A DNA stretch of 62,678 nt, the filler included. It is 6 parts of 6 records of this genome, joined end to end, with 100 filler letters (N's around TTAATTAATTAA, not from the genome) between each part and the next. Parts side by side here need not be neighbours in the genome. Positions count along the whole stretch, not along the records: positions 1 to 19,241 come from DRR378314_764; 5 more parts are not named here. One strand, given 5' to 3'. Shown here piece after piece: positions 401 through 42,005 of this stretch. Position 1 is the stretch's first letter; every line of letters starts with the position of its first letter. The translations under genes were made by a program, and so were the position numbers. Under the pieces are notes generated by a model, which searched no databases, was not told the origin of the DNA, and was given only the letters and a program-made list of their open reading frames with translations.

Positions 401-1411
401 TTATCGGCAATGCTCGCACCGGGCAATGGCGGCGGCATCAAACACGCCGGTATCCAAAACCCAGGCGGTGACGAGGCTGGCGGGGGTAACGTCAAAAGCC
501 GGGTTCCATACGGGAGCATCGCTGGGTGCCCACACTACGTCGCCAAAGGCACCCGAAACACCGCGTATTTCGGCGCCGTCACGCTGTTCAATAGGAATCT
601 CGGCGCCAGTGGCGCAGGCGGGATCCACCGTGGTGTAGGGTGCGACCACGTAAAACGGCACTTTATGGTAGTGGGCGGCAACGGCGAGCATGTAAGTACC
701 CACTTTGTTGGCGAGGTCACCGTTGGCGCAAATGCGGTCGGCACCGACCATGACTTTATCGACTTTCCCCGCGGCCATTAAGCTTGCGGCCATGCTGTCA
801 GCAATCAGTTGGTAGGGAATATCTAGGTCAGCCATTTCCCAAGCGGTTAAGCGGCCACCTTGCAGCAACGGGCGGGTTTCATCCACATACACATGCAGCG
901 CCACACCGCGTTGCTTGGCGATTGCCAGCGCGCCAATGGCGGTGCCAACGCCTGCGGTAGCAAGCGCCCCGGTATTGCAGTGGGTCAGGACGCGGTCACC
1001 TGATTGCAAAAGGTCGGCTCCCCGCTCGGCCATGCGCTGGCAAAGCTCGCGGTCTTCTGCAAACAGTTCAGCGGCACGCTCAGCCAAGGCGGCAACCCCT
1101 TGCTCAAAGCAGGCTTCCATGGCATCCAGGCAGTACATCAGGTTCACTGCGGTGGGACGCGTGGCGCGTAAGCGATCACTTACCAACTGCCAATCACTTT
1201 GCGGATGACGCGCGGCGTATTGAGCCAGCACGAAAGCAGCGCTCAAACCAATCAGCGGTGCGCCGCGAATCGCTAAGCTTTTTACCGCTACCTGCCACGT
1301 TTCTGGCGAGTCACAGCGCACCCACTGTTCCATCTGGGGCAGTTGGGTTTGATCCAAATACTCAAGGTAGTCGGCATAGACCCGTAAACTGCGTGACTGT
1401 AAGTGTGGCAT
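401..1411 (-). CDS. mtnA: Methylthioribose-1-phosphate isomerase
   Basis: Motifs IRGAPLIG, RPTAVNL, THCNTGALATAG, DETRPLLQGGRLTAWE, NKVGTY, NPAFDVTP. Confidence 0.96.
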   Translation of the reverse strand: MPHLQSRSLRVYADYLEYLDQTQLPQMEQWVRCDSPETWQVAVKSLAIRGAPLIGLSAAFVLAQYAARHPQSDWQLVSDRLRATRPTAVNLMYCLDAMEACFEQGVAALAERAAELFAEDRELCQRMAERGADLLQSGDRVLTHCNTGALATAGVGTAIGALAIAKQRGVALHVYVDETRPLLQGGRLTAWEMADLDIPYQLIADSMAASLMAAGKVDKVMVGADRICANGDLANKVGTYMLAVAAHYHKVPFYVVAPYTTVDPACATGAEIPIEQRDGAEIRGVSGAFGDVVWAPSDAPVWNPAFDVTPASLVTAWVLDTGVFDAAAIARCEHCR

Positions 1412-1522
1412 TGCTGGACTCCTTGAGCACTCGAACTTGACTAGCAGAACAACGGCGCGGCTTATCAGGCGCGAAGCTTATCATATAGAATGGCTGCTAC
1501 TAGATGAGGCGACGCAGATCCT

Positions 1523-2113
1523 ATGATGACGCTACAAACTGAACTGCTGGCCGCCATTTCATGGGCGGCGCAGCAAGGCTGGACACCCGCCACCGGCGGT
1601 AACTTTTCCGCCCGTACCGAGGCGGGCTATCTTGTCACCGCTTCTGGCCGAGATAAAACCCGCATTCAGGCCGATGACCTCTTGCTCTGCAACCTGGATG
1701 GCAAGGTGCTATCCGGTGATGGGAAACCTAGCGCGGAAAGTGATCTTCACGCTGCGCTTTATCGGCTAGACCCGACCATTAACTGCGTGCTGCATACCCA
1801 TACCCTAGCCAGCACTGTGCTGTCACGGCGCTTTCCAAACGGCATTGAGCTAAGTGGCTTCGAGATGCAAAAAGCTCTGCAGGGCAACGTGACTCATGAT
1901 GCCTCGGTTCTTTTACCTGTGGTACCAAATTCCCAAGATATGGACGAGCTAGCGGAGCATGTACGCCTCGGCTGGCCGATGCCCTGGGGCTTTTTGGTAG
2001 CGGGGCACGGTATTTATGCCGTGGGCGATAGCATCGCTAGTTGCCGTCGGCACTTGGAAGCCATTGAATTTTTACTGTCCTGTGTACTTGAAGAGAGCCG
2101 GTGGTCTAAATGA
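1523..2113 (+). CDS. mtnB: Methylthioribulose-1-phosphate dehydratase
   Basis: GWTPATGGNFS, KPSAE..LH, HTH and GHG class II aldolase-fold motifs; co-operonic with mtnC and mtnD. Confidence 0.93.
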   Translation: MMTLQTELLAAISWAAQQGWTPATGGNFSARTEAGYLVTASGRDKTRIQADDLLLCNLDGKVLSGDGKPSAESDLHAALYRLDPTINCVLHTHTLASTVLSRRFPNGIELSGFEMQKALQGNVTHDASVLLPVVPNSQDMDELAEHVRLGWPMPWGFLVAGHGIYAVGDSIASCRRHLEAIEFLLSCVLEESRWSK

Positions 2114-2796
2114 GTAACCCAGCTGTTCGCGCCGTTGTAACCGATATCGAAGGCACCACCACGGATATTAACTTCGTGCATAAGGTGCTGTTTCCCTACG
2201 CCCAGGCCAAACTGCCCGGCTTTCTACGCGCGAATGCAGACACACCTGCGGTTGCCGAGCAAATTAGCGCCGTGCGCAGTGAAATGGATGCCCCTGATGC
2301 CACGCTGGATGCCGTCATTGCGCAGTTACTGCACTGGATCGAGACCGACCAAAAAGTCACGCCGCTGAAAGCACTGCAAGGCATGGTGTGGGCCGATGGC
2401 TATCAACGTGGCGATTTTAAAGGCCATTTGTATAACGATGTAGCCCCAGCACTGCGCCAGTGGCAGCAGGCAGGCAAAGCGCTATACGTGTATTCGTCAG
2501 GTTCCGTGCAGGCGCAGAAACTGCTGTTTGGCTACAGCGAAGAAGGCGACTTAACCCCCCTGTTTAGCGGCTACTTCGACACCCATATTGGCCATAAGCG
2601 CGAAGCCACGGCCTATCAGCGAATTATCGCTGAGCTTGACCTACCGCCGGAAGCGGTGCTGTTCTTATCGGACGTGGTCGAAGAGCTGGACGCCGCCAAG
2701 CAGGCGGGCATGCAGACCCTGCAGTTAGTTCGCGAAGGCACCCAGGCGGGCAATAGCCACGCGTGCGTTACCCGCTTTGATGAAATTGCGCTTTAG
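2110..2796 (+). CDS. mtnC: Enolase-phosphatase E1 (acireductone synthase)
   Basis: HAD motif DIEGTT, LFPYA, LKALQG, YSSGSVQAQKLLF, FLSD; ATGA overlap with mtnB. Confidence 0.96.
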   Translation: MSNPAVRAVVTDIEGTTTDINFVHKVLFPYAQAKLPGFLRANADTPAVAEQISAVRSEMDAPDATLDAVIAQLLHWIETDQKVTPLKALQGMVWADGYQRGDFKGHLYNDVAPALRQWQQAGKALYVYSSGSVQAQKLLFGYSEEGDLTPLFSGYFDTHIGHKREATAYQRIIAELDLPPEAVLFLSDVVEELDAAKQAGMQTLQLVREGTQAGNSHACVTRFDEIAL

Positions 2797-2807
2797 GAGA
2801 GCCTAGA

Positions 2808-3356
2808 ATGTCGCAACTGAAAGTATTTGCTGATCAGAACCCTAACAATGCCCTGCTGGACATCACCGACGGCGAGCAGATAACTGCTGAGCTGAACAAG
2901 GTGGGTGTGCTGTTTGAGCGCTGGGCAACGCCAGGCGAGATTGCCGACGATGCCACCCAGGAAGATATTCTGGCGCTCTACCAAGACGATATCGACCGGG
3001 TGAAAGCCATGGGCGGCTACCAAACCGTTGATGTGCTGCACATGGTGCCCACGCACCCAGACAAAGACGCCATGCGCCAGAAGTTCTTAAACGAACACCG
3101 CCATCACGAAGACGAAGTACGCTTCTTCGTCAAGGGCCAGGGGCTTTTCTGCCTGCATATTGAAGACACGGTGTATCAGGTACTGTGTACCCGCAATGAC
3201 CTGATCAGCGTACCCGCGAACACGCCCCATTGGTTCGATATGGGTCCAGCGCCAGAGTTCACTGCGCTGCGCTTCTTCGATAACGTAGAAGGCTGGGTGC
3301 CTCACTGGACAGAGAGCGATATCGCCGGGAAGTTTGATCGCCTGGATCAGTTGTAA
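2808..3356 (+). CDS. mtnD: Acireductone dioxygenase
   Basis: Cupin motif FLNEHRHHEDEVRFFV and HWFDMG; AGGAG RBS. Confidence 0.96.
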   Translation: MSQLKVFADQNPNNALLDITDGEQITAELNKVGVLFERWATPGEIADDATQEDILALYQDDIDRVKAMGGYQTVDVLHMVPTHPDKDAMRQKFLNEHRHHEDEVRFFVKGQGLFCLHIEDTVYQVLCTRNDLISVPANTPHWFDMGPAPEFTALRFFDNVEGWVPHWTESDIAGKFDRLDQL

Positions 3357-3394
3357 GTTGTGAATAGTAAATCGTAAGTAGTGAATCGTGGGAG
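3353..3394 (+). repeat. Degenerate 7-bp tandem repeat (5-6 units)
   Basis: GTAAGTT GTGAATA GTAAATC GTAAGTA GTGAATC GTGGGAG, starting at the mtnD stop codon. Confidence 0.6.
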
Positions 3395-3405
3395 ATAGCA
3401 CCGCC

Positions 3406-3540
3406 CGCGGGTGCCTCATACGCTCGTCCCTCGCGAGATTCGTTACACCGCGCTACGGGGCTTTACAATAGTTGAGTTGGGCTCATTATGTAGCGCGGCG
3501 TAAGCGTCAGCGCACCCGCGAAGCAACGCGCCAGCGTTGC
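3406..3540. repeat. Inverted pair of GTAG-type REP-like elements plus a small hairpin
   Basis: 3490-3520 GTAGCGCGGCGTAAGCGTCAGCGCACCCGCG; 3406-3456 reads GTAGCGCGGTGTAA...GCACCCGCG on the minus strand; hairpin GCAACGC-GCCA-GCGTTGC at 3523-3540. Confidence 0.7.
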
Positions 3541-3614
3541 CGAGGTTGGCACCGAGGCCGGATCAGCCACAGCGCCATTATCAAGAAGTCCATTATATCG
3601 AGAGGGGTAAGCGT

Positions 3615-4880
3615 TTATAACACCTCTTGCTGGTTATACGTCTTGGCAAGCTCCGCCAGCGCGGCAAGATCACAGTAAGCTTCAGGCTGCATAATTAACG
3701 CTTGGCCCATCAGCACATTGCGTGCTTCAAGCTTAGCGCGTAGTGCGGTGTCTTCGATCTCTTCAAAGTCGGCGTTGTGGGCCAGCGATAAAACGCGGCG
3801 ATGCATTTCAATACCGCAATAAGCCAGTGCATCCAGGCGAATCTCTTCAAGCAGTGCATCGCAGGCGTCATCGGCACTATTGCCCTGGGCTTCAAACAGC
3901 GCCCGGGGGAACAGAATGCCGGTGCGTTCGGTTTGCCATAGATGGCGGAACTCGGCATCAAAGCGGGTAAAGCACGCTTCAATCACGTCAAGAATCCACG
4001 CTTGGTAGGCATCAAGCTCATCGGCTTGGCGGTGGGCGGGCTGGCTGAAATAGGCCATCAGGAAGTTGGCAACGGCCATGCCTAGATCAAAGGCCATTGG
4101 GCCATACTGGGAAAACTCGGGATCAATCACCCGCACATCCGACTCAGTGGCCATAATTGACCCAGAGTGCAAATCACCGTGCAACATGGTTTCCGTGTTC
4201 GCAGTGAACTTCATCAACAGCCGCTGCACTTTAGCTTTTAAGCGCGCATTACGGCGCAGTTCATCCACTACCGGCGAAAGCTCTGGCGTATGGCGGTTCA
4301 TTTCGGCGCCATAATAGGGATCGGTAAACACTAGGGATTCGGTAATCGCAGGAATCGCCACGTTGCCTGAAAACAGCCCCACGTCGGCTTTCTTCTCAGG
4401 GCTGCTTAAGGAGAGTTCCGAGCCACGAAACGCCATGCGCGCACAGAATTCACCGATGGTTTCGCCAAGCTGAGCAACCCGCTCACCGCTGATCAGTTTA
4501 CGACGCAGAATCGTGTGCGGGTAAAGGTACTCCATGACAATCAGCGCTTGGGGCTTGTCGAAATAGAACACCTCAGGGGCGATGCCCGGCGCACGCTGGG
4601 CTTGGCGTACCAGGGCGTAATACTCAAAGTGGGCGCGATAAAGTGGCAGCGGCCAGCTCTCACCGACCATACGCACATAGGGTAGCGCTTGTTTTACCAC
4701 CACGCTTCCCGCACTCCCCGATACAATGAACACCAAGTTGAGATTGCCATCCCCTACTTCGCGAATCTGCCACTGCTCAGGGTTGGCGCCCACTCGGCTT
4801 GCCACTGCCTCGACACTCCCCAACCGCTGGGCCAGAGTATCTACCTCTAACGCTTGATAGGCCTGTTCGTGTGCCACCAT
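3615..4880 (-). CDS. mtnK: 5-methylthioribose kinase
   Basis: EVGDGNLNLVF, KQALPYVR.VGESWPL, HGDLHSGS, VIDPEF, GPMAFDLG; ATG at 4880 with a GAGGAA RBS is preferred over 4916. Confidence 0.95.
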   Translation of the reverse strand: MVAHEQAYQALEVDTLAQRLGSVEAVASRVGANPEQWQIREVGDGNLNLVFIVSGSAGSVVVKQALPYVRMVGESWPLPLYRAHFEYYALVRQAQRAPGIAPEVFYFDKPQALIVMEYLYPHTILRRKLISGERVAQLGETIGEFCARMAFRGSELSLSSPEKKADVGLFSGNVAIPAITESLVFTDPYYGAEMNRHTPELSPVVDELRRNARLKAKVQRLLMKFTANTETMLHGDLHSGSIMATESDVRVIDPEFSQYGPMAFDLGMAVANFLMAYFSQPAHRQADELDAYQAWILDVIEACFTRFDAEFRHLWQTERTGILFPRALFEAQGNSADDACDALLEEIRLDALAYCGIEMHRRVLSLAHNADFEEIEDTALRAKLEARNVLMGQALIMQPEAYCDLAALAELAKTYNQQEVL

Positions 4881-5008
4881 TTTATTCCTCACGAAAAATG
4901 CGTTTTTATTTGTCACACTGGGGAATGGTTGTCAAACACCTTCATACGCAAGCGTAGCGAAACCGTCATAACACGATTAGCCCAGCAACCGACGACAAGG
5001 AGAGCACG

Positions 5009-5305: not shown

Positions 5306-6058
5306 TTAGCTTAAAAATCGCACTCCTCTCGCGGCCAGAGGGCTGCGCAACCTATCCGGTAGCGGGCTATCAGTAATCACCGCATGATAGTCAGCAAGCT
5401 GGCCAGCGGCACAGCGCAGCGGTAGGTCGAATTTGGTTTTATCCAGCACCAGAATGCGATAGGCGGCATGGGATAGCAGCGCTTCGCGAGCCATAACTTC
5501 GTCATCATTGTAGTCATATAAATGGCCATCACTGTCCATGCCGCCCACTGAGACAATGCCGACATCCACCCGGTAGCGTTGAAAGAAGCGCCAGGCATCG
5601 CCGCCAATCACATCTTGATCACGCCGCCGTACCCGCCCACCCGCTACCACCAGCTCGCATTCCATGGTGCACAGTTTGATGAGTGCGTGCAGGTTATTGG
5701 TCATAATCTGCAGACCTTGCTTATCGCGTAAGGCGTCAGCCAGTTGCTCTACCGTGGTACCGGTACCTAAAAATAGCGATTGGTGATGCTGAACCAGCGA
5801 AGCGGCCTGGCGGGCAATCTGACGCTTACCCGCTTGATTAACGATTTGGCGCTGATCGTAGCCAATATTCTCCTGATCGGGAAATGGCAACACTTCTCCG
5901 TGGCGACGCAATACCAGCCCTTGCTCAGCCAAGACACGAACATCCCCACGCAGTGTTTGTATCGACACATCAAACTGGCCAGCTAGCGATTCCAGGGGCT
6001 GGCGACCTTGCTGGCGCACCTGTGCCAACACGGCACGGCGGCGCTCGTTTAAGCCCAT
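5306..6058 (-). CDS. DeoR/GlpR-family transcriptional regulator
   Basis: N-terminal HTH (FDVSIQTLRGDVRVL, LRRHG), KRQIARQAA, GTGTT, MTNN, DKTKF; start at ATG 6058 or GTG 6082. Confidence 0.92.
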   Translation of the reverse strand: MGLNERRRAVLAQVRQQGRQPLESLAGQFDVSIQTLRGDVRVLAEQGLVLRRHGEVLPFPDQENIGYDQRQIVNQAGKRQIARQAASLVQHHQSLFLGTGTTVEQLADALRDKQGLQIMTNNLHALIKLCTMECELVVAGGRVRRRDQDVIGGDAWRFFQRYRVDVGIVSVGGMDSDGHLYDYNDDEVMAREALLSHAAYRILVLDKTKFDLPLRCAAGQLADYHAVITDSPLPDRLRSPLAARGVRFLS

Positions 6059-6090
6059 TATTTTCTTCACGTCGGCGACCACCTTAGTAA

Positions 6091-6139
6091 CGAAAGCCTT
6101 TTTTTGACAGGCGAAAGCCTACCGCCATCAAACGAAAGC
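6091..6139. promoter_or_regulatory. Three phased direct repeats, putative DeoR operator
   Basis: CGAAAGC at 6091, 6112 and 6133, exactly 21 bp apart, in the divergent intergenic region. Confidence 0.6.
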
Positions 6140-6142
6140 GTA

Positions 6143-6176
6143 GTGTCACGATGTTGTAAGGCGATGACAGTAGTGT
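6143..6176 (+). promoter_or_regulatory. Pho box plus -10 element (putative PhoB-activated promoter)
   Basis: GTGTCACGATGTTGTAAG (TGTCA and TGTAA 11 bp apart), 10-bp spacer, then TAGTGT; same layout as the E. coli phoA promoter. Confidence 0.7.
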
Positions 6177-6206
6177 GATCAGTGTTCACCTACTGGAGGT
6201 TTTACG

Positions 6207-7187
6207 ATGTTGAAGCGCTCACTGTGCACTGCCGTTACGCTTGCAAGCTTTGCTCTATCGTCGTCACTGCTGGCTGATGACAAATTGGTGCTCTATACCA
6301 GCCAACCGAATAGCGATGCCCAACAAACCGTGGATGCCTTTCAGGCCGCCTATCCTGATATTGAGGTGGAGTGGGTACGCGATGGCACCACTCGCCTGAT
6401 GACTCGCCTACGCTCAGAGCTTTCCGCGGGTGTCAGCAACCCAGACGTACTATTAATTGCTGACAGCATGACCATGACCTCACTCAAGCAAGAGGGCCAT
6501 TTGCAGGCTTACCTCAGCCCAGAGCGGGAGGCTTATGATGAGGCGCTATACGATCCGGAAGGCTACTTCTACGGCACCAAACTGATCACCACAGGGATTG
6601 TGTATAACACCGCTGCCGAACATCAGCCGCAGCGTTGGCAAGATCTGACGGGGCCTGACTATGAAGGCCTGGTAACAATGCCAAGCCCGCTCTATTCCGG
6701 CGCAGCGCTGATTCATATGGCTGCGCTGAGCGACAACCCCGACCTTGGAATGGGCTACTACGAGGCGCTGCAAGCTAATCGTGCAGAAGCTCAGGGCGGG
6801 AATGGCGGCGTGTTCAATGCCGTTGCCTCAGGCACGAAGCCCTACGGTATCGTGGTGGATTTCCTGCCGATTCGCGAGGCCGCCAAGGGTTCACCGGTTG
6901 AGTTTGTCTTCCCTGCAGAGGGCGTTAGTGCGGTCACCGAGCCTGTCGCAATTATGCAGGGTGCCAACAACCCGGACGCCGCGCAGAAATTTGTCGATTT
7001 CGTGCTTTCTCAACAAGGCCAGGAACTCGTCAGCCAGCAAGGCTACCTGCCTGCCCACCCGGCTGTTGCACCGCCTGAAGGCTTTCCCGCTCGTGATGCT
7101 ATCCAGCTAATGCCGATCAATATTGAGCAAGCACTGGAGCAGGAAGAGACGTTGAAGCAGCGCTTTAGCGACCTGTTTGGCGGCTAA
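6207..7187 (+). CDS. ABC transporter substrate-binding protein (AfuA/FbpA/PhnS-like family)
   Basis: Signal peptide, LVLYTS, PSPLYSG, FVFPAEG, AAQKFVDFVLS; GGAGG RBS. Confidence 0.9.
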   Translation: MLKRSLCTAVTLASFALSSSLLADDKLVLYTSQPNSDAQQTVDAFQAAYPDIEVEWVRDGTTRLMTRLRSELSAGVSNPDVLLIADSMTMTSLKQEGHLQAYLSPEREAYDEALYDPEGYFYGTKLITTGIVYNTAAEHQPQRWQDLTGPDYEGLVTMPSPLYSGAALIHMAALSDNPDLGMGYYEALQANRAEAQGGNGGVFNAVASGTKPYGIVVDFLPIREAAKGSPVEFVFPAEGVSAVTEPVAIMQGANNPDAAQKFVDFVLSQQGQELVSQQGYLPAHPAVAPPEGFPARDAIQLMPINIEQALEQEETLKQRFSDLFGG

Positions 7188-7189
7188 CC

Positions 7190-8890
7190 ATGACACCGTC
7201 GCTTAACGTTGGCAGCCAGCATCGCTGGCTGCTCAGCCTAATCACACTCACGGTGGTGCTATTAAGCCTAGCGCCTAGCCTGCGGCTACTGGCTGAGGCA
7301 CTTAGTGACCTTGGCCAGGGCAGCGAATCACCGCTATGGAAGGTGCTTAACGCAGCGAGTACCTGGCGAGCGCTGTGGCACAGTGTGTATACCTCAGGTC
7401 TTGGAATGTTGATTGCTCTGGTGCTGGGTAGCCTATTCGCCTTCGTGATTACGCTGACCGACATCCGTGGCAAAGCATGGCTCGTGTTCTGCTTTATGCT
7501 GCCGATGATGATTCCTCCCCAGGTGACGGCACTGAGCTGGCTACAGCTGTTCGGCCCCGCCAGCCCGTTGCTGAAAAGCATTGGTATGGCACCGCCGCTG
7601 GGCAGCCCTCAGCCGCTCTACTCAGCTGAAGGCATTGCTCTGTTGCTAGGGATTCAGAGCGCACCGCTGGTCTTTTTAGCACTGCGCACCTCACTGATCT
7701 CACTCCCCCGCGAGCTTATCGAAGCAGCCCGTATCAGCGGCGCGCGCCAGACCCAAGTCTGGGGGCAGATTATTTTGCCAGTCACTCGGCACGGTTTAAT
7801 CGCCGGGGCGGCGATGGCGTTTATTTCTAGCCTGGGCAACTTCGGTATCCCTGCCATGCTGGGGATTCCTGCGGGCTACTACGTGTTACCGACGCTGATC
7901 TACCAGCGTATGGCTAGCTTTGGTACCGGCGTGCTGGCGGAAATGGCAGCGCTATCGTTATTGATTGGTGTGCTGGCACTGGCAGGGGTTGCCTTGCAGC
8001 AGTACTGGATGAATCGCAGCCGCTTTGGCTTAGGCGGCCATAGCGGTCGCTCTCATGACTTTACCCTGGGCCGCTTTCGGCCAGCGGTGACGACCGCACT
8101 CGTCGGCGTTTTATTGGTGATTCTCGTCGCGCCACTCGCAGCGCTGGTGGTCAGCTCATTGGTGCCCGCCATGGGCGTTCCCCTTAGCTTCGATAGCGTG
8201 ACGTTAAACGCCTATCACGAAGTGATTGGCCGCCAAGGCGCCACCTGGCGCGCTGTACGCAACAGCCTATGGCTAGCAGGCGGTGCCGCGCTGGTGCTTA
8301 TGCTGTGCAGCCTGCCGCTAGCGTATCGCCTGCAGCGGCTGCCACCCCGCCTCCAGCAACTGACGCTCAGCGCTATTGAGCTGCCCTACGCGCTGCCTGG
8401 TGTAGTGCTGGCGATCGCCTGCATTTTGCTGTTCGTACGCCCTCTGCCGCTGATCAACGTTGCGCTCTACGGCACGCTCGGGCTGATCTTTGTGGCCTAT
8501 CTGGCGCGTTTCTTAGTGGTATGCCTCAAACCCGTTAGCGCCAGCCTGGCCCAGCTTGATCCCTCCTTGGAAGAAGCCGCACAACTGGCGGGGGCAGGCC
8601 CGTGGCGGCGGCTAACCACGATCGTACTGCCACTGATTGCACCATCGCTATTTGCCGGGGGGCTGTTGGTCTTCCTGCTGGCGGTGAACGAGCTGACGGT
8701 ATCGGCACTGCTTTGGAGCGCTGGCAACGAAACGCTGGGCGTATTGATTTTTAACCTTGATGAGGGCGGTGAGAGCGTGCTGGCATCTGCGGTATCGGTA
8801 CTGGTGGTCTTGATGGTCGCCACGCTGATGCTGTCGCTCAGCCTGCTCGCCCCTCGTTTACCCAAAGGAGTCGTGCCATGGCAGGGCTAG
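7190..8890 (+). CDS. ABC transporter permease, fused two-domain FbpB/AfuB type
   Basis: Two EAA loops (EAARISGA, EEAAQLAGA); about 12 hydrophobic segments. Confidence 0.92.
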   Translation: MTPSLNVGSQHRWLLSLITLTVVLLSLAPSLRLLAEALSDLGQGSESPLWKVLNAASTWRALWHSVYTSGLGMLIALVLGSLFAFVITLTDIRGKAWLVFCFMLPMMIPPQVTALSWLQLFGPASPLLKSIGMAPPLGSPQPLYSAEGIALLLGIQSAPLVFLALRTSLISLPRELIEAARISGARQTQVWGQIILPVTRHGLIAGAAMAFISSLGNFGIPAMLGIPAGYYVLPTLIYQRMASFGTGVLAEMAALSLLIGVLALAGVALQQYWMNRSRFGLGGHSGRSHDFTLGRFRPAVTTALVGVLLVILVAPLAALVVSSLVPAMGVPLSFDSVTLNAYHEVIGRQGATWRAVRNSLWLAGGAALVLMLCSLPLAYRLQRLPPRLQQLTLSAIELPYALPGVVLAIACILLFVRPLPLINVALYGTLGLIFVAYLARFLVVCLKPVSASLAQLDPSLEEAAQLAGAGPWRRLTTIVLPLIAPSLFAGGLLVFLLAVNELTVSALLWSAGNETLGVLIFNLDEGGESVLASAVSVLVVLMVATLMLSLSLLAPRLPKGVVPWQG

Positions 8891-9936
8891 CAATTCAACA
8901 GGTCACCAAACAGTTTGGCGACCATCGCGCGGTCAATGACCTCTCGCTAGAGATTACGCCAGGGGAATTTGTGGCACTGCTGGGCCCCAGCGGCTGCGGT
9001 AAAACCACCATGCTACGTATGTTGGCGGGGTTCGAAAATGTCACTGGCGGCGAAATACACCTGAACGATACACTGCTAGCCAGCCGCCATCACCATGTAC
9101 CACCAGAACAGCGCAACATGGCAATGGTATTTCAGTCATACGCGCTCTGGCCGCATATGAACGTGGCCGACAACGTCGGTTACCCACTCAAACTGCGCCG
9201 CATTCAGGGCAGTGAGTATCAACGCCGAGTTGCTCATGCACTGGCTCAGGTAGCCTTGGAACCCTATGCACAGCGTTCGCCACAGGAGCTTAGCGGTGGT
9301 CAGCGCCAACGGGTCGCGCTAGCCCGCTGTCTAGTGACCGACCCTGCGGTTGTACTGCTGGATGAACCGCTGGCCAATCTAGACCGTAATCTGCGTGCCT
9401 CCATGGAACACAGCTTTGTGGATTTCCACCGCCGTACCCGCGCGACGATGGTGTACGTCACTCACGATCAAAGCGAAGCCATGGCGATGGCCGACCGCAT
9501 TGCCGTAATGCGCGACGGTGAGCTAGTACAGTGGGCAACGCCCGAAGCGCTTTATCGCCAACCGCGCAGCGAATGGGTGGCCAGCTTTATCGGCCAAGGT
9601 AGCCAGTTGGCCATTGCCAACGGCGCGCCAGGGCAGCGGCTAACGGAAAGTGCCCTGATGCAAGGGCTGGCTGCAGCACACAACTCCCGCGCCCAAGCTG
9701 CACGTCAACCCGTCCTGGTTCGCCCCGAACATATTCGCGTAGACGCTCAGGCTCCCAATGAACATGACCTTACCGGGCGCGTCGAGCGGTTAACATTTCG
9801 TGGTGAACGCTACGAGTTGCACCTGCGTCTGCCCAGCGGCGAAGCCTTGCTGGCTTACCATCACTGCGCGCTTGAAGAAGGTCAGCAAGTCGCTTTGCGG
9901 CTACTAGAAGGCTGGTGCCTGGAGCCTGACCAATGA
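8878..9936 (+). CDS. ABC transporter ATP-binding protein with C-terminal TOBE-like region
   Basis: Walker A GPSGCGKT, signature LSGGQRQR, Walker B LLDEP, VTHD. Confidence 0.95.
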   Translation: MAGLAIQQVTKQFGDHRAVNDLSLEITPGEFVALLGPSGCGKTTMLRMLAGFENVTGGEIHLNDTLLASRHHHVPPEQRNMAMVFQSYALWPHMNVADNVGYPLKLRRIQGSEYQRRVAHALAQVALEPYAQRSPQELSGGQRQRVALARCLVTDPAVVLLDEPLANLDRNLRASMEHSFVDFHRRTRATMVYVTHDQSEAMAMADRIAVMRDGELVQWATPEALYRQPRSEWVASFIGQGSQLAIANGAPGQRLTESALMQGLAAAHNSRAQAARQPVLVRPEHIRVDAQAPNEHDLTGRVERLTFRGERYELHLRLPSGEALLAYHHCALEEGQQVALRLLEGWCLEPDQ

Positions 9937-11015
9937 GCGCCCGTATTCATCTATTAAGCGGGCTGGGTGATAAAGGCCCTGCCGCTATCGTGGTCGAAAC
10001 CAACGGCAAGCGGCTGCTGCTGGACGCAGGGGGTGCGCTGCACCCTGGGGAGCCTATCACCTGGGCAGATGGCTTGGACGTAGACGCTATTCTGATTAGC
10101 CACGACCATATTGACCATATCGGTGGCGTTGCCGAACTGCCCGATACTATCCCGCTCTACTGCACGCCCTTAGTCGCCAACACATTGCCTAAACACCGCG
10201 CTTGGCAGCCTTTGCCAGCACGCGGAAGCCTTATGGTCGAAGGTATCAAGGTGACCACCGGCCAAGCAGGACACTCGCTGGGTGGCGTTTGGCTGCACCT
10301 GGACGTAGATGGCGGCATTTTCTACAGCGGCGATGCCTGTTTTGAATCCCGCTTGTTTCCTTTCGATACACCGCCACCTGCACGCACGGCGCTGCTGGAC
10401 GCTTCCTATGGCACCTACGATCAACCCCAGGAAAGCTGCGTGCAGGCTATTCGTCTGCAGCTTGACCAGCCGTTAGTATTACCGGTGCCTGAAACAGGGC
10501 GCGCCCTGGAAATGGCCCTGTGGCTGTCGGAAGAGGCCGACCGTCGTCAGCTCCCTTTCGCCATTGACCCGATTATTCGCGATAACCTCGCCGCACTGCT
10601 AGCACTGCCAAGCGACTTACGCCGCCCAGGTCTCGACAGTGCGATTAGCACACTGCTAGAACGGCAGAATGCTTCGCAGCCAGCGCTGCAGTTGGTCAGT
10701 GACCGCAATGATACGCCCGACCAATGGCCCAATTACCAGCTACTGCACACCGGTTACCTAACACCTGAACGCCAAGTTCAACTCGCCGCAGGCGAGACAA
10801 GCTGGCAACGCTGGAATGTGCATCTGCGCGCCTCCCACCTAGTAGCGCTTGCCGATCAGCTTGCTGCCGCTCAGGTAGTGCCGCTATTTACCCCGCTGAC
10901 TGGCAACTGTTTAAGCGAATGGCGTCAACGTCTGGGACAGCGGCTACGCATCCATCACACCATAGAGCTTCAACCGCATACGGCCACGCGCCCTACCGCC
11001 CATTTAACCGTTTAG
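9933..11015 (+). CDS. MBL-fold metallo-hydrolase, beta-CASP-like
   Basis: LLLDAG, SHDHIDH, AGH, YSGD, DASYG, P..GRALE, HTGY, WNVH; no signal peptide; ATGA overlap with the ATPase gene. Confidence 0.85.
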   Translation: MSARIHLLSGLGDKGPAAIVVETNGKRLLLDAGGALHPGEPITWADGLDVDAILISHDHIDHIGGVAELPDTIPLYCTPLVANTLPKHRAWQPLPARGSLMVEGIKVTTGQAGHSLGGVWLHLDVDGGIFYSGDACFESRLFPFDTPPPARTALLDASYGTYDQPQESCVQAIRLQLDQPLVLPVPETGRALEMALWLSEEADRRQLPFAIDPIIRDNLAALLALPSDLRRPGLDSAISTLLERQNASQPALQLVSDRNDTPDQWPNYQLLHTGYLTPERQVQLAAGETSWQRWNVHLRASHLVALADQLAAAQVVPLFTPLTGNCLSEWRQRLGQRLRIHHTIELQPHTATRPTAHLTV

Positions 11016-11025
11016 GAAATTAATA

Positions 11026-11472
11026 ATGTCCGCAGTGATTGTTGATGTTGACGGCACGCTTGCCGAATTCCACCCCACCGACGTACACGAGTGGGTTCTT
11101 GGCCCCGCCAAGCAGTGGGATCCTTTTTTTGCCCATATGGCTGAAGCGCCGGTGATCGACGCGGTGGCCAAACTGGTTAAGATCCTGAAGGCCCAAGGCC
11201 AGCAGATCGTGATTTGCAGCGGCCGTCCGGATAGCCACCGTGAGCATACCCAGCGCTGGTTAGAGCGCCACACCATTCCCTTTGATGCGATGTACCTGCG
11301 CCCGCAAGGCGATGACCATGTAGATGATGAAGAGGTGAAAGCCGCGCTACTCAATCAAATGCGTAGCGACGGCTTTGCGCCTTGGCTGGTGCTGGATGAC
11401 CGTGACGCGGTCGTCGCTCAATGGCGCGCACTCGGACTTACTTGCCTGCAGTGCGCACCGGGAGATTTTTAA
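11026..11472 (+). CDS. HAD phosphatase resembling the 3'-phosphatase domain of polynucleotide kinase/phosphatase
   Basis: DVDGT, SGR, K, DDRDAVVAQWRALGLTCLQCAPGDF. Confidence 0.85.
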   Translation: MSAVIVDVDGTLAEFHPTDVHEWVLGPAKQWDPFFAHMAEAPVIDAVAKLVKILKAQGQQIVICSGRPDSHREHTQRWLERHTIPFDAMYLRPQGDDHVDDEEVKAALLNQMRSDGFAPWLVLDDRDAVVAQWRALGLTCLQCAPGDF

Positions 11473-12632
11473 GCGCTTGCTAGGCTGATTCGGTGCTGCC
11501 ACACCAGCACCACCAAGGGCACCAGCGCGACGGGGATTAATAGTAGGTTAAGCATCGCCCAGCCCAAGCCGCTAACCAAAGGCCCAGCGAACAAGGCGGT
11601 CACCGCCGCGGTGCCAAACACTAGAAACTCGTTGGCGGCCTGGGTGCGCGCTTTATCCACCGGGCGGTAGCTCTCAGTGAGCAGTCCGGTGGCGGGTAGG
11701 AAGGTAAAGTTCCAGCCCAAGCCCAACAAAATCAGCGCTACGTTGAAACCGACTAAACCGATTCCCCACTGAGCAACCAAAGCACTGGCTACCAGCAGCA
11801 GGCAACCTGCCACAATGACTTGTTTGGCGCCGAAGCGGGTGGCCAAATGGCCAGTAAAGAAGGAAGGCAAGAACATCGCTACCACGTGCCACTGAATGGT
11901 CATTGAAACGTGGTTAAAGTGGTGGCCAGCTCCCTCCATGGCGAGCGGTGTGGCGGTCATCGCCAGATTCATCACACCGTAGCCGACCATCGCCGCGCTC
12001 ACCGCGACAATAAATCCGGGCTGGCGAAGTATCTTCCCTAGCGGCAGTGCGCTGCCTTCGCAGTGGGTGCGAGAAGCGGGCGGTAACCGTGTCAGCATCA
12101 ATACCGCTAATGCCAACGCATAGAGCACAGCTAAACCCACGAAACTGCCCAGAAACGGCACCTCGCCCAGCTCACGGCTTACTCTGGCCAGCCACGGTCC
12201 TGCAAACGCCGCCAGCACACCACCGCCCATCACCAGACCAATCGCCCGGTCACGCATCAATGCCGGGGCGGCCTCTACTGCGGCAAAGCGATACAGTTGA
12301 CCAAAGCCAATGCCGATACCAATCAGCCAGGTGGCCAGTAAGAACAGTCCAAAGTGCTCATCCATCAGCGCCTGGACGGCAACCAGTGCGCCTACGAATC
12401 CCACTATATTGCCCAGTATAAAGCCACGCTTTCGACCCAGCCTGGCCATGATTAGCGAGGCAGGAATAGTCGCACACATCAGCCCCAGCCACTGGGTAGC
12501 GACAGGCGCTGTCGACCATGACGCGCTAGGGGCCAAGGACGCCCCTATCAGCGGTGATACGGCGATCAACAAGACATTGCCAGTAACCAGCAGCGCCTGG
12601 CAGAGCGATAATAGAGTGACGGTTAAAGGCAT
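11469..12632 (-). CDS. MFS transporter
   Basis: About 12 hydrophobic segments, RLGRKRGF loop, YRFAAVE, IQWHVVAMFLPSFFTG. Confidence 0.9.
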   Translation of the reverse strand: MPLTVTLLSLCQALLVTGNVLLIAVSPLIGASLAPSASWSTAPVATQWLGLMCATIPASLIMARLGRKRGFILGNIVGFVGALVAVQALMDEHFGLFLLATWLIGIGIGFGQLYRFAAVEAAPALMRDRAIGLVMGGGVLAAFAGPWLARVSRELGEVPFLGSFVGLAVLYALALAVLMLTRLPPASRTHCEGSALPLGKILRQPGFIVAVSAAMVGYGVMNLAMTATPLAMEGAGHHFNHVSMTIQWHVVAMFLPSFFTGHLATRFGAKQVIVAGCLLLVASALVAQWGIGLVGFNVALILLGLGWNFTFLPATGLLTESYRPVDKARTQAANEFLVFGTAAVTALFAGPLVSGLGWAMLNLLLIPVALVPLVVLVWQHRISLASA

Positions 12633-13745: not shown

Positions 13746-14435
13746 TCAGCCCGTTCTCTCTATCTCTAATGGAGACTCCATCCTGCGTACGCTGGAAACG
13801 AAATCGCTAAAGCGCTCGCCCTGAATCAATACATGGTCGCTCAGTGCTTGCTGAGCAGCCACTGAGTCGCCCCGCTCAATAGCCTCGACGATGGCTTGAT
13901 GCTCGCTGAGAGAGCTATTTACCCGTTGACGCACCTGCAGCTGTAGCCGCCGGTAAGGCTTTAAGCGCTGCTTCAATTGACGCGCTTCGCTGGCCAAAAA
14001 GGCGTTGTGGCTAGCGGTGTAGATACAGTCATGAAACCCTTCGTTTTCGTAGTAATACTCGTCGCTGTCACCAGCCAGCGCTGCTGCTTCGCAGCGCTGA
14101 TGGGCTTCGCGTAACGCGGCCAGTTCGGCTTCGGTAATCCTCCGTGCCGCCAAGCGGCCGCACATACCCTCTAACTCCGCCATCACCTCGAACATCTCGA
14201 TCAGTTGATCAATTCCCACTTTCGCAACGAAGGTGCCCTTCTTCGGCGAAACGGTGACCAAGCCGCTGGCGACCAGCTGCTGAAAGGCTTCGCGCACCGG
14301 GGTACGCGAGACCTGAAACTCTCGCCCTAAGGCTTCTGGATCCAGGCGCTCTCCCGGTAAACGACGGCCATTGATGATGTCATCTTCAAGAGAATCTCTT
14401 AATCGCTGAGCGTTAGAAAGCTTAGTGCCCGTCAT
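13746..14435 (-). CDS. GntR/FadR-family regulator, probable malonate regulator
   Basis: VSRTPVREA HTH plus FCD domain; divergent from the malonate genes. Confidence 0.9.
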   Translation of the reverse strand: MTGTKLSNAQRLRDSLEDDIINGRRLPGERLDPEALGREFQVSRTPVREAFQQLVASGLVTVSPKKGTFVAKVGIDQLIEMFEVMAELEGMCGRLAARRITEAELAALREAHQRCEAAALAGDSDEYYYENEGFHDCIYTASHNAFLASEARQLKQRLKPYRRLQLQVRQRVNSSLSEHQAIVEAIERGDSVAAQQALSDHVLIQGERFSDFVSSVRRMESPLEIERTG

Positions 14436-14515
14436 GTTTCACCTCCTTGGATCACGACTCATGTTAGCCATTTTAATGCTGTCATATAGTTGACATTAGC
14501 ATACGTAGCGCCTAT

Positions 14516-14550
14516 TGATATATATATCAGGTCAACTGATAGATATATAT
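14516..14550. promoter_or_regulatory. Palindromic putative GntR operator with a second imperfect copy
   Basis: Perfect palindrome TGATATATATATCA at 14516-14529; related TGATAGATATATAT at 14537-14550. Confidence 0.55.
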
Positions 14551-14591
14551 AGCCAATCCAAACACACAACAACAACTGTTGGAGACGCCAC

Positions 14592-15590
14592 ATGCAACGC
14601 TATTTGATCTCAACTGCTGCCGCCCTTGGTCTCGCCATTGCGGCTTCTTCCCATGCCTCTGCCGATACCGTGCTACGCGCGTCGCACCAATTCCCCGGAG
14701 GGCAAGGGGATGTTCGCGACGAAATGGTGCAAATGATGGCCCGCCATGTCGCCGAGGCAGATGTTGGCCTGACGATAGAGGTCTACCCGGGTCAATCGCT
14801 GTTTAAAGCGCGTGAACAGTGGAGCGCTATCGCTCGTGGTCGCCTCGATATCACCTCGCTGCCGCTGGATTATGCCAGCGGACGGCACCCGGAGTTCTCT
14901 GCCACGCTGATGCCTGGCTTAGTGCGCAACCAAGCACACGCTCAGCGTTTGAATGACTCCGAATACATGGAGATGATCAAAGCGGTGATTCTAGAGGGCG
15001 GCGCTCGAGTACTCTCGGATGCGTGGCTATCGGGCGGTTTTGCCTCTAGCGAACAGTGCGTTACCTCCCCGGATACCGTCGAGGGCCAAAATTTCCGTGC
15101 TGCCGGACCTGCGTTTGAACAAATGCTTGAGGCCGCTGGTGCCTCCATTGCCTCCATGCCCTCTTCTGAGGTGTATACCGCCATGCAAACCGGTGTGTTG
15201 GATGCCGCCAACACCTCGTCGATGTCGTTTATCTCTTTCCGGCTTTATGAACAGGTTGAATGCTTGACCGAACCGGGTGACTTCGCGCTCTGGTACATGT
15301 ACGAGCCGATTCTTATTTCCGAGCAGGTATGGCAAGGGCTTAATGAAGAGCAGCAAGCGGCGCTGATGGAAGCCGGAGAAGCCGCAGAGGCCTTCTTCGC
15401 TGAAGAGGCCGCCGCCATTGATCAGGAGATGGTCGACCTTTACGAGGAGAATGGCGTCGAGGTGGTCAGTATGAGCGAAGAGGACTACAACGCCTGGCTC
15501 GATATCGCCAAGGAAACTTCCTACAAAAACTTTGCCGACAATGTGCCCAATGGCCAAGCCATTATCGATGCAGCGCTGGCCGTCGAATAA
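14592..15590 (+). CDS. dctP: TRAP transporter substrate-binding protein DctP (malonate, MatP-like)
   Basis: Signal peptide, LRASHQFPG, MPSSEVYTAMQTGVLDA; upstream of matA/matB. Confidence 0.9.
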   Translation: MQRYLISTAAALGLAIAASSHASADTVLRASHQFPGGQGDVRDEMVQMMARHVAEADVGLTIEVYPGQSLFKAREQWSAIARGRLDITSLPLDYASGRHPEFSATLMPGLVRNQAHAQRLNDSEYMEMIKAVILEGGARVLSDAWLSGGFASSEQCVTSPDTVEGQNFRAAGPAFEQMLEAAGASIASMPSSEVYTAMQTGVLDAANTSSMSFISFRLYEQVECLTEPGDFALWYMYEPILISEQVWQGLNEEQQAALMEAGEAAEAFFAEEAAAIDQEMVDLYEENGVEVVSMSEEDYNAWLDIAKETSYKNFADNVPNGQAIIDAALAVE

Positions 15591-15614
15591 GCAACCCACG
15601 AACGCCTAATGGCT

Positions 15615-15640
15615 CGGCTGCCCTTCGGGGTGGCCGTTTT
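15615..15640 (+). terminator. Intergenic stem-loop after dctP (terminator or mRNA stabiliser)
   Basis: CGGCTGCCC-TTCG-GGGTGGCCG followed by TTTT. Confidence 0.6.
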
Positions 15641-15690
15641 CAACGGATGCTTGCTTAGCTTGGCGACATAACCAGCTTGACGAGGGAAAT

Positions 15691-16212
15691 ATGGCACCTG
15701 CAACGACTCACAATGCCCTTGCTCGCGGGGGCATCATTGGCGGCTACATTCGCGTCATGGATAAGCTCTCGCGGCTTTCCGCTTATTTAGCCTGCGCCAT
15801 GTTTATCGCTGGCGTATTAGTGATTTGCCAGATGGTATTTATTCGCTACTTACTCGGAATGAGCACCAGTTGGCAGACCGAATTCACCATTTTCTCAGTA
15901 ACGGCGGCGATGCTGATGGGCAGCCCTTATGTACTGATGACCGGCGGCCACGTCGCGATCACGATTGTGCCCGATGCGCTGGGCGGTATTACCCGCACCA
16001 TCATGCGTTTGATCGCTTCCCTGTTTGGATTAGGTTTCTGTGCCGCCCTGGCGTATGCCAGCTGGGTGTATGTTTTTGAGGCACTCCACGGCGGGTGGAC
16101 GACGGGCTCCGTCTGGAATCCACCGCTGTGGCCCGCCCTGTTGCCCATGGCCATCGGCGCCACCCTGCTGTCGTTGCAGTATGTGGCTGAAATTCTGCGT
16201 GGGGAGAGTTAA
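15691..16212 (+). CDS. dctQ: TRAP small permease DctQ
   Basis: Four TM segments, RY...WQTE, GGHVAI. Confidence 0.9.
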   Translation: MAPATTHNALARGGIIGGYIRVMDKLSRLSAYLACAMFIAGVLVICQMVFIRYLLGMSTSWQTEFTIFSVTAAMLMGSPYVLMTGGHVAITIVPDALGGITRTIMRLIASLFGLGFCAALAYASWVYVFEALHGGWTTGSVWNPPLWPALLPMAIGATLLSLQYVAEILRGES

Positions 16213-16214
16213 GC

Positions 16215-17561
16215 ATGGATCCCATTACCTTAGGCATTATTGTCGCCATCGCACTGATTGGGCTAATGGCCATTGGCACCCCTATCGCTTTCGCCCTCGG
16301 CGGTGTATCGCTGCTAGCGCTGCTCTACGACCGCGGCCTTGCCGAGCTCACCTACTTCGGTGAAACCTTTTTTGACCGCATCGCCGAGTTTGGTTTTGTC
16401 GCCATTCCAATGTTTATTCTGATGGGCGCAGCGGTAGCCTCCTCCCCTACCGGGCGCGATCTGTATCGCTCGCTGGATCTATGGATGGGCAAGCTGCCCG
16501 GCGGCTTGGCGGTTTCCAATATCGGCGCCTGTTCAATCTTTGCTGCGCTCTCGGGATCATCACCGGCCACCTGCGCAGCGATTGGTAAAATGGGCATTCC
16601 CGAAATGCGCATGCGTGGCTACCCGGATGGCGTCGCGGCGGGCTGTATTGCCGCAGGCGGCACCCTGGGCATTCTGATTCCGCCGTCGGTCACCATGATT
16701 ATCTACGGTATCTCCACCGAAACCTCGATTGGTCGACTATTTATTGCCGGGGTGGTGCCAGGCTTTATGCTCGCGGGCCTGTTTATGATCTGGACGATGA
16801 TCGCCTGCAAGCTGGCCGGTGGCTATAACAATTCCATGAACAATCCCATGGCGGAGTCCGTCGAACGGCTAAAGCAGAACGTTAAGCAGAATGTTGATAC
16901 CAACCTGAAAGCGCTCGTGCGTGTTCTGCCTTTCCTGGGCGTGGTCGCGGGCATCCTATTTGCCTTGTATGGCGGGGTGGCAACACCTTCAGAGGCGGCG
17001 GGCGTGGGTGCGTTTCTGTGTTTGGCGCTGGCGATTCTGATCTACCGCATGTGGCAGTTGGGCCCAATCAAGCTGATTATGCGCGACTCACTGCGCGAAA
17101 GCGTGATGATTATGCTGGTGATCGCCACCGCCGAAGTGTTCGCCTACGCACTCTCTTCCATGTTTATCACCCAAACCGTCGCCGCTGCGATTGCTGATCT
17201 GGAGATCAACCGCTGGGCGCTAATGGGGGTGATTAACCTCTTCCTGCTAGTGGCCGGTTTCTTCCTGCCGCCTGTGGCCGTGATCGTCATGACCGCGCCG
17301 ATTCTGTTACCCATCATCCTGGCGGCTAATTTCGACCCCTACTGGTTTGCGGTGATTTTGACCATCAACCTGGAGATCGGCCTGATCACACCGCCAGTGG
17401 GTCTCAACCTGTTCATTATTAAAGGTATCGCGCCGGATATTTCGCTGCGCGACATTCTGATGGGAAGCTTGCCCTACGCGCTATGTATGGTGCTGGGTAT
17501 CTTGCTGCTGTGCCTCTTCCCGGGCATCGCGCTTTGGCTACCTAACTTGATCATGGGTTAA
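16215..17561 (+). CDS. dctM: TRAP large permease DctM
   Basis: AIPMFILMG, GGTLGILIPPS, TPSEAA, GLITPPVGLNLF. Confidence 0.95.
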   Translation: MDPITLGIIVAIALIGLMAIGTPIAFALGGVSLLALLYDRGLAELTYFGETFFDRIAEFGFVAIPMFILMGAAVASSPTGRDLYRSLDLWMGKLPGGLAVSNIGACSIFAALSGSSPATCAAIGKMGIPEMRMRGYPDGVAAGCIAAGGTLGILIPPSVTMIIYGISTETSIGRLFIAGVVPGFMLAGLFMIWTMIACKLAGGYNNSMNNPMAESVERLKQNVKQNVDTNLKALVRVLPFLGVVAGILFALYGGVATPSEAAGVGAFLCLALAILIYRMWQLGPIKLIMRDSLRESVMIMLVIATAEVFAYALSSMFITQTVAAAIADLEINRWALMGVINLFLLVAGFFLPPVAVIVMTAPILLPIILAANFDPYWFAVILTINLEIGLITPPVGLNLFIIKGIAPDISLRDILMGSLPYALCMVLGILLLCLFPGIALWLPNLIMG

Positions 17562-17572
17562 GGAGTTCGACC

Positions 17573-18940: not shown

Positions 18941-19241
18941 GCCACAACCTATTTGAAACCTTTGCTGCCAAAATGCGCGAGCGCGCAGAGGCCGATTTTA
19001 TTACCACCCGCGACGGCCGCCGCTATCGCTACGCCGATGCGCTAGCCATCAGTGCGCAGCTTGCGGGTGCACTCACCGAGTTAGGCGTTAAGCAAGGTGA
19101 CCGCGTCGCGGTACAGGTGGATAAAAGTCCTGAGGCGATACTGCTTTACTTGGCCTGCCTGCGCATCGGCGGCGTCTATTTGCCCCTCAATACGGGCTAT
19201 ACCGGCGATGAAATTCGCTACTTTTTAAATGACGCCGAGCC
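18937..19241 (+). CDS. matB: Malonyl-CoA synthetase, 3'-truncated by the contig end
   Basis: GDRVAVQVDKSPEAILLYLACLRIGGVYLPLNTGYT; ATGA overlap with matA. Confidence 0.88.
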
Positions 19242-19341
19242 NNNNNNNNNNNNNNNNNNNNNNNNNNNNNNNNNNNNNNNNNNNNTTAATTAATTAANNN
19301 NNNNNNNNNNNNNNNNNNNNNNNNNNNNNNNNNNNNNNNNN
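19242..19341. other. Artificial contig linker
   Basis: 44 N + TTAATTAATTAA (stop codons in all six frames) + 44 N; abrupt change in base composition. Confidence 0.99.
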
Positions 19342-32865: not shown

Positions 32866-32965
32866 NNNNNNNNNNNNNNNNNNNNNNNNNNNNNNNNNNN
32901 NNNNNNNNNTTAATTAATTAANNNNNNNNNNNNNNNNNNNNNNNNNNNNNNNNNNNNNNNNNNNN
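32866..32965. other. Artificial contig linker
   Basis: N44-TTAATTAATTAA-N44. Confidence 0.99.
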
Positions 32966-41905: not shown

Positions 41906-42005
41906 NNNNNNNNNNNNNNNNNNNNNNNNNNNNNNNNNNNNNNNNNNNNTTAATTAATTAANNNNNNNNNNNNNNNNNNNNNNNNNNNNNNNNNNNNNNN
42001 NNNNN
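41906..42005. other. Artificial contig linker
   Basis: N44-TTAATTAATTAA-N44. Confidence 0.99.

Follow-up and report, generated by a model that had tools for sequence, protein, structure and literature searches.

The first contig (DRR378314_764) of the 62,678-nucleotide stretch of joined DNA analysed here, hereafter the window, carries five tightly coupled genes at 6207-11472 that are divergent from a deoR-type regulator gene. They encode the binding protein, fused permease and ATPase of an ABC transporter, a compact beta-CASP hydrolase of the metallo-beta-lactamase (MBL) class and a HAD_PNKP phosphatase. This cassette is very probably a phosphorus-scavenging system, one that is real, widespread, unnamed and usually mislabelled as iron uptake. 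The preferred cargo would be a nucleic-acid breakdown fragment, such as a dinucleotide, pNp or a 2',3'-cyclic or 3'-nucleotide, and on the scheme with this nucleotide-type cargo our confidence is evenly divided.

Conservation of the cassette

Gene calls and Pfam matches bear out the five-gene operon divergent from DeoR that a sequence-only reading of the window had proposed, and all six genes recur in unchanged order at 11 of 11 Vreelandella/Halomonas loci, whose flanks vary. The contig of one relative matches the window from 5334 and diverges exactly at the stop of the HAD gene, which argues that the phosphatase belongs to the cassette. The hydrolase profile was found in 14 of 401 Pseudomonadota genomes and, in four order-level samples that overlap, in 24/201, 9/201, 1/201 and 7/251 genomes. 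Gene context was assessed for all 43 distinct hydrolase hits other than that of genome G152, taken as species-level loci, and a full transporter lies within 6 kb of the hydrolase in 42 of them. That reading was to be given up if the hydrolases were not conserved beside the transporter; they are, among close (11/11) and distant (42/43) loci alike. In line with phosphorus scavenging, the cassettes of one clade come immediately after phnE-DUF1045-phnM-phnN. Named carriers include Phaeobacter inhibens (seven genes; binding protein PGA2_RS18435), Paracoccus, Alloyangia, Nitratireductor, Phyllobacterium and Enterobacter plasmids. On one conjugative plasmid of Enterobacter hormaechei (L045 2883-9607), the ABC, MBL and His-phosphatase genes are accompanied by an IS5-family element at the place of deoR. 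The only orphan hydrolase gene (L072 6720-8174) neighbours genes for LacI, xylulokinase and xylose isomerase.

Promoter and probable phosphate control

Under low phosphate, phosphorylated PhoB would be expected to bind the Pho box in the shared promoter and turn the operon on, as induction of the Sinorhizobium meliloti orthologue (below) suggests. The three phased repeats, the Pho-like box and a TA..T hexamer are kept across an alignment of 12 promoters in which the spacers diverge, so the promoter elements first noticed in the window are retained by its relatives. The box occupies the -35 position, 10 nt ahead of the putative -10, which is the geometry of the Pho regulon and would place the transcription start some 7 nt past 6176. 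The Pho-box pattern matches once in the window, where 0.08 matches are expected, and was seen in 8 of 100 shuffles. A strict pattern of box plus -10 matches three times in genome G152 (at the cassette operon, pstC and a phytase-like esterase gene, with no others) and twice in G153, and the reversed control gives none. G152 also has tandem Pho-like boxes between class B/C acid phosphatase and phytase-like esterase genes (L012 1-2421).

Homologous promoters were scored in 52 upstream regions with a Pho-box consensus. A Pho-like box at p<=0.05 against shuffles was found on the coding strand in 39 of 52 and on the reverse strand in 9 of 52, with L058, whose scored region belongs to an unrelated ATPase gene, entered as a miss. 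TA at +10 past the box, a feature outside the Pho-box score, occurs in 30 of 52 promoters, against a background of 1.9% over whole loci. Because the loci are related, these counts overstate independence.

An orthologous transporter is present in the S. meliloti record CP090106.1 (subunits 57%, 56% and 49% identical; binding protein 57%), between cold-shock genes, rpsU and ftsZ. It is assigned to SMc04317 through the neighbouring tags cspA1 and rpsU1, that is, by synteny and not by direct comparison with the strain 1021 sequence. SMc04317 is among the highly induced core phosphate-stress genes, has a Pho box and is labelled as iron transport (PMC8829014). Under phosphate stress, values of +9.0/+8.6 are given for SMc04317 and +7.9/+7.2 for SMc04316, read here as log2 (the header shows no unit), and +3.6/+4.3 for the HAD-IIB gene behind the transporter (PMC8829014). 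The SMc04317-SMc04316-SMc04300 system thus resembles the cassette in its orthologous transporter, Pho box and strong phosphate-stress induction; it differs in that the HAD-IIB gene follows, and MBL, HAD_PNKP and deoR are absent within the 18.9-kb region. The product of the gene after the transporter (L089 13144-14856) joins a HAD-IIB domain to one of the P-loop ATPase type. Together, the box and -10 geometry, the 39 of 52 promoters and the induction of the orthologue support the PhoB activation proposed earlier.

A sugar-phosphate product of the pathway would lift the DeoR repressor from the CGAAAG repeats. Of the 22 loci with a divergent deoR, 21 have at least two CGAAA/TTTCG words upstream, against 4 of the 30 without it, which fits a local operator. 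The triple repeat matches once in each of five genomes, always at the cassette promoter; the reversed control yields five matches in those five genomes, so the repeat alone is no rarer than chance genome-wide. What supports the triple repeat as a putative operator is its conserved position and its occurrence together with deoR, not rarity.

A sigma-70 scan of the region found no promoter, and no terminator scored above chance. In RNA run X21, for which the growth condition is not known, sense depth is ~36 where the binding-protein gene begins and 0.3-7 downstream, and along the MBL and HAD genes (window 9600-11700) antisense reads outnumber sense reads. The reads allowed no transcription start to be placed and no single transcript to be demonstrated, and the run neither supports nor refutes the scheme. 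The antisense reads apparently represent read-through from a convergent MFS gene that comes after the HAD_PNKP gene, with no terminator between.

Transporter and binding protein

Following induction, the ABC transporter would take up a small, still phosphorylated molecule intact, as suggested by the fold of the binding protein and the residues of its phosphate site. Its closest solved relatives are the glucose 6-phosphate (G6P)-binding VcA0625 and AfuA, then P5PA, at about 24-25% identity. Relative to the AfuA ligand residues (PMC4546632), an invariant Thr stands in for the phosphate ligand Ser37 and Thr150 is Ala inside an invariant S-G-A, whereas the sugar-binding His205 and Glu229 are missing (no His lies in the aligned segment, and Glu229 aligns to Val). 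The match to Asp206 varies with the alignment, and the His205/Asp206/Glu229 motif is not found. Invariant Arg and Lys residues are retained.

Cassette transporters carry the database label 'iron ABC transporter permease', and taken at its word this label would make the system an importer of iron(III) or another metal, with the hydrolases incidental. FbpA-type proteins do occur among the fold matches, and two loci that lack the MBL gene have an iron-related setting: at L087 a Fur-family gene and a ferritin-like one run divergently from it, and L086 stands beside Fur/ZnuA. Tandem tyrosines are the iron ligands of ferric binding proteins. No such pair is present in 43 of 43 sequences (columns 196-198); the YY of the Campylobacter jejuni protein (1y4t) aligns to Phe-Leu and its N-terminal His to Pro. 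Moreover, the L087 promoter has one of the best Pho boxes, and the S. meliloti orthologue responds to phosphate limitation (PMC8829014). Judged by binding-site residues, Pho boxes and the response of the orthologue, metal import is very unlikely, and the non-iron cargo of the sequence-only reading gains support.

The transporter profile was found in 24 of 401 Pseudomonadota genomes, 14 with the MBL gene and 10 without. The latter raise the alternative that the transporter brings in phosphomonoesters (sugar phosphates or nucleoside monophosphates), with the MBL enzyme as an optional accessory, either itself a phosphatase or active on some internal substrate. S. meliloti, which carries only the induced HAD-IIB gene (+3.6/+4.3) behind its transporter (PMC8829014), is in keeping with this. 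However, the MBL gene is almost always found with the transporter (42/43), the partnership reaches a sister subfamily of the hydrolase, and in a midpoint-rooted tree the MBL-less transporters are nested among MBL-bearing ones, which suggests MBL loss. Monoester import is improbable on this evidence. Replacement of the hydrolase by an EEP enzyme was also considered: an Exo_endo_phos gene is found near 4 of the 10 MBL-less transporters, all in one clade, adjacent in two (L081, L082) and 1.3-2.7 kb away in two, and its best NCBIfam match, ExeM/NucH, is far below the cut-off. Since it is confined to one clade at variable spacing, this weak lead was not counted as evidence.

The beta-CASP hydrolase

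Following import, the compact beta-CASP enzyme, which has no visible signal peptide, would cut the phosphodiester of the imported molecule in the cytoplasm, a role to which its fold and gene context point. A model built with AlphaFold2 from a 79-sequence alignment has a pLDDT of 95.7, and its top Foldseek and VIA matches are aCPSF1, Ysh1, CPSF3 (CPSF73) and TTHA0252. The Z score is 34.7 against CPSF3, over 344 of 360 residues, and about 19-21 against RNase Z, PhnP and SNM1-type chains; the profile matches CPSF73 with E 3.6e-30. MBL motifs 1-4 are intact (D31; H57-x-H59-x-D61-H62; H114; D134; each position in 77-79 of 79 sequences), as are motif A (D156, 78/79) and motif B (H297, 77/79) when aligned to CPSF73. 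The beta-CASP assignment made from the sequence is thus well founded.

At motif C, where CPSF73 has the zinc ligand H418, the hydrolase has Phe in 73 of 79 sequences and His in 2 of 79, and so does not match the RNA-acting type. The motif-C His is lost in DNA-acting SNM1 enzymes as well, and putting it back left the DNA/RNA preference unchanged (PMC4678830); motif C is therefore no predictor of substrate. The enzyme shares its fold and motifs 1-4, A and B with CPSF73, aCPSF1, TTHA0252 and SNM1A/B. It differs from the beta-CASP nucleases in having Phe rather than His or Val at motif C, in its tie to a nutrient importer and in its length, ~350-360 aa versus 431-461 in TTHA0252/CPSF3, with a shortened beta-CASP domain. 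No NCBIfam cut-off was reached by the hydrolase (TIGR03675, 44 of 580 bits), and ESM Atlas look-ups returned generic names alone. Judged by its sequence, the hydrolase is an unnamed compact beta-CASP subfamily.

A PhnP-like role was rejected, since the PhnP fold scores Z 19 versus 35 for CPSF3 and the one phn-linked clade already has DUF1045. The phytase-like MBLs Mblp01/02 are ZipD-like and lie outside the cassette hydrolase family (PMC6584368).

A sister beta-CASP subfamily retains the motif-C His. Forty of its loci were examined (one from a Bacillus record plus the 39 best of 78 metagenome loci), and the sister hydrolase adjoins a related binding protein in 28 of the 29 longer than 7 kb, two of the 29 being members of the core family. 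Regulators in sister loci are LysR or AraC. Right after sister beta-CASP genes, L099 (7251-8819) and L131 (7179-8753) carry genes similar to cofactor-independent phosphoglycerate mutase but permuted, with iPGM_N C-terminal.

Partner phosphatases

Following cleavage, HAD_PNKP, together with a histidine phosphatase in most relatives, would free inorganic phosphate, judging from fold and gene context. The window protein scores 107.9 bits with PF25109 (cut-off 27.6), and its nearest structures are Pnkp1 (4xrp, E 7e-16) and T4 PNKP (E 3e-12), in agreement with the PNKP-type phosphatase named at the outset. It consists of the 148-aa phosphatase domain alone, and the end-healing layout of Pnkp, kinase-joined and in an RNA repair cassette, is not seen.

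The HAD_PNKP gene is present in 11 of 11 close relatives and 22 of 43 distant loci. A phosphatase gene directly follows the hydrolase in 37 of the 43, drawn from four unrelated families: HAD_PNKP with a His-phosphatase in 21, His-phosphatase in 7, DSP in 4, SurE in 4 and HAD_PNKP alone in 1, with none in 6. A fifth family appears in one metagenome locus (L134), where an inositol monophosphatase (IMPase)-family gene takes the slot. The window lineage appears to have lost the His-phosphatase that most relatives carry. Two SurE-type cassettes have a Na/Pi cotransporter family gene after surE (L093 12841-14505; L174 7963-9627).

The beta-CASP and HAD_PNKP folds are both found in RNA processing and repair, and weak Apyc1 and HAD_SAK_2 Pfam scores were recorded, so that the pair might be a module for RNA end healing, repair or defence whose place behind a transporter is incidental. 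We give this very little credence: the cassette has no ligase, kinase or methyltransferase, SurE, DSP or His-phosphatase can replace HAD_PNKP beside an unchanged transporter, and the promoters have Pho boxes.

Candidate cargoes

The nuclease fold favours nucleotide fragments, as do the PNKP-type and SurE partners (the HAD protein is nearest the Pnkp 3'-phosphatase, and the SurE partner nearest a 5'/3'-nucleotidase) and the pentose-sensing flavour of the alternative regulators. Cassette regulators are DeoR in 23 loci (one of them distant), LacI in 5 and SorC in 4, and the alternative regulators are nearest B. subtilis DeoR and RbsR, both below cut-off. A more specific proposal, to which we give somewhat less than even weight, is a dedicated pathway that imports dinucleotides, pNp and cyclic nucleotides without periplasmic dephosphorylation and is finished by a beta-CASP subfamily serving nutrition only, in a partnership so old that it spans proteobacteria and Bacillus-type genomes.

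Several observations weigh against a nucleotide-type cargo. Among solved binding proteins, those closest to the one here have sugar phosphates or pyridoxal phosphate (PLP) as ligands, not nucleotides. Three features point to small sugar or polyol phosphates: the local DeoR regulator scores best with GlpR (148 bits, below the cut-off of 331), the phosphatase of L134 resembles inositol monophosphatase (152 bits) more than CysQ (73 bits), and a phosphoglycerate-mutase-like gene adjoins the hydrolase in 3 of the 29 sister loci. Histidine phosphatases, DSP and HAD enzymes accept a wide range of substrates. In a binding-protein tree of 54 sequences, the combinations of phosphatase and regulator form about four clades, so independent phosphatase swaps are few and the 37 cases shrink accordingly; likewise, the loci placed directly behind phnE-DUF1045-phnM-phnN collapse to one clade (3 loci, 97% identical). 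The hydrolase is missing from 10 of the 24 transporter genomes, and since S. meliloti is one that lacks it, the induction data bear on the transporter only. Finally, the cargo assignment, itself an even call, draws on fold, motifs and gene context.

The same scheme could instead serve a small sugar, polyol or glycerate phosphodiester or cyclic phosphate, with the beta-CASP enzyme wholly diverted from nucleic acids; examples would be lipid head-group or teichoic-acid fragments, inositol or ribose 1,2-cyclic phosphate and agrocinopine-like diesters. Such a cargo is favoured by the likeness of the binding protein to VcA0625/AfuA, the GlpR-like, LacI and SorC regulators, which respond to sugars or sugar phosphates, the IMPase-like partner, the mutase-linked sister loci, the shortened beta-CASP domain and the precedent of acc (below). 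However, AfuA His205/Glu229 are not kept, the characterised beta-CASP enzymes among the matches act on RNA or DNA, and the PNKP-type and SurE partners suit nucleotides. Sugar-type cargo is therefore a possible but rather doubtful alternative. The substrate class of the sequence-only reading (short oligonucleotide, cyclic nucleotide or glycerophosphodiester) and its DeoR-mediated induction by the substrate are likewise inferences.

Much of the organic phosphorus in sea and soil is present as dissolved nucleic-acid fragments and phosphodiesters, and the usual assumption is that Gram-negative bacteria remove the phosphate from such compounds before they reach the cytoplasm. Direct uptake by 14 of the 401 Pseudomonadota genomes sampled, and by 24 of 201 in one order, would alter that picture. 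False 'iron transporter' counts would leave genome surveys, and a beta-CASP subfamily would gain its first metabolic role. If the cargo is of the nucleic-acid type, it would also be named for one of the most phosphate-induced and misannotated transporters of rhizobia and roseobacters.

Comparison with known systems

The Agrobacterium acc system (AccR, AccABCDE, AccF, AccG) is under PhoB/phosphate control; AccA is of peptide-binding class 5 and AccF is a glycerophosphodiester phosphodiesterase (GDPD). AccA is not among the PDB matches of the binding protein, a direct AccA/AccF comparison not having been made. The cassette shares with acc the layout of DeoR, ABC transporter, phosphodiesterase and phosphatase; in acc, the intact phosphodiester is imported by the ABC transporter and cleaved in the cytoplasm, and the cleavage product is the inducer (PMC4526662). 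In contrast, the cassette has a cluster-D AfuA-like protein, one fused permease, one ATPase and a beta-CASP diesterase.

E. coli ugpBAECQ similarly combines Pho-regulated ABC import with a cytoplasmic phosphodiesterase. The cassette is not a member of that system (UgpA 40 of 335 bits, UgpC 326 of 432 bits, no match to UgpB or UgpQ), nor of the 2-aminoethylphosphonate transporters PhnS/PhnS2 (TIGR03261, 130 of 393 bits; TIGR03227, 42 of 395), whose phnW/phnX context is absent from it. The cassette works like acc and ugp, with different protein families and a different diesterase fold. No description of it was found in the literature searched, which did not cover subscription journals or bioRxiv supplements, and none is given in the available parts of PMC2848018, PMC6584368, PMC9306846, PMC6421345 and PMC4771312. 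The scavenging scheme, folds and linkage of the sequence-only reading are supported; it had overlooked the commoner form with an extra His-phosphatase, the MBL-less transporters, the S. meliloti data and the acc precedent.

Features of the window

Table 1 Cassette features in window coordinates
Feature	Position	Strand	Basis
DeoR/GlpR-family regulator, divergent, 250 aa from ATG at 6058	5306-6058	-	Pfam DeoRC 139 bits and HTH_DeoR; top NCBIfam GlpR-like
Three CGAAAG direct repeats, 21-nt phase, putative DeoR operator	6091-6138	+	Starts 6091, 6112, 6133
Pho-like box, two heptamers, 4-nt spacer	6143-6160	+	Pattern match, promoter alignment
Putative -10 hexamer TAGTGT, 10 nt past Pho box	6171-6176	+	Promoter alignment
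Cluster-D periplasmic binding protein, AfuA/P5PA-like fold, without FbpA tyrosine pair	6207-7187	+	Pfam SBP_bac_6
Fused two-domain ABC permease	7190-8890	+	BPD_transp_1 x2; 2-nt gap after binding-protein gene
ABC ATPase with TOBE domain	8878-9936	+	ABC_tran and TOBE_2; 13-nt overlap with permease
Compact beta-CASP metallo-hydrolase (MBL), 360 aa, predicted phosphodiesterase	9933-11015	+	Lactamase_B_2; ATGA overlap
Stand-alone HAD_PNKP phosphatase, DxDGT, without kinase domain	11026-11472	+	PF25109; 10-nt gap after MBL

The window joins contigs of unrelated organisms, since N runs (19242-19341, 32866-32965, 41906-42005, 48183-48282 and 55187-55286) part stretches of very different GC content (57%, 27%, 41%, 52%, 57% and 39%). 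The whole cassette lies within the first contig, ahead of the N run that begins at 19242. This contig is Vreelandella-type, from a salt-loving bacterium, and its MBL gene shares 94-95% identity with records of Vreelandella venusta and V. alkaliphila. A search of the family of G001 gave 0 of 151 and was uninformative, as the window is a concatenation of contigs and G001 itself gave no match.

Upstream of the cassette, window 401-4916 holds methionine salvage genes, which Pfam matches suggest to be mtnA, mtnB, mtnC, mtnD and an mtnK-like gene. Only 4 of 11 relatives have mtnK in the flanking sequence retrieved, so the salvage genes are not part of the cassette. Window 13746-19293 holds a GntR/FCD regulator and a TRAP transporter with what are presumably malonyl-CoA decarboxylase-like and acyl-CoA synthetase-like genes, a probable malonate uptake cluster unrelated to the cassette.

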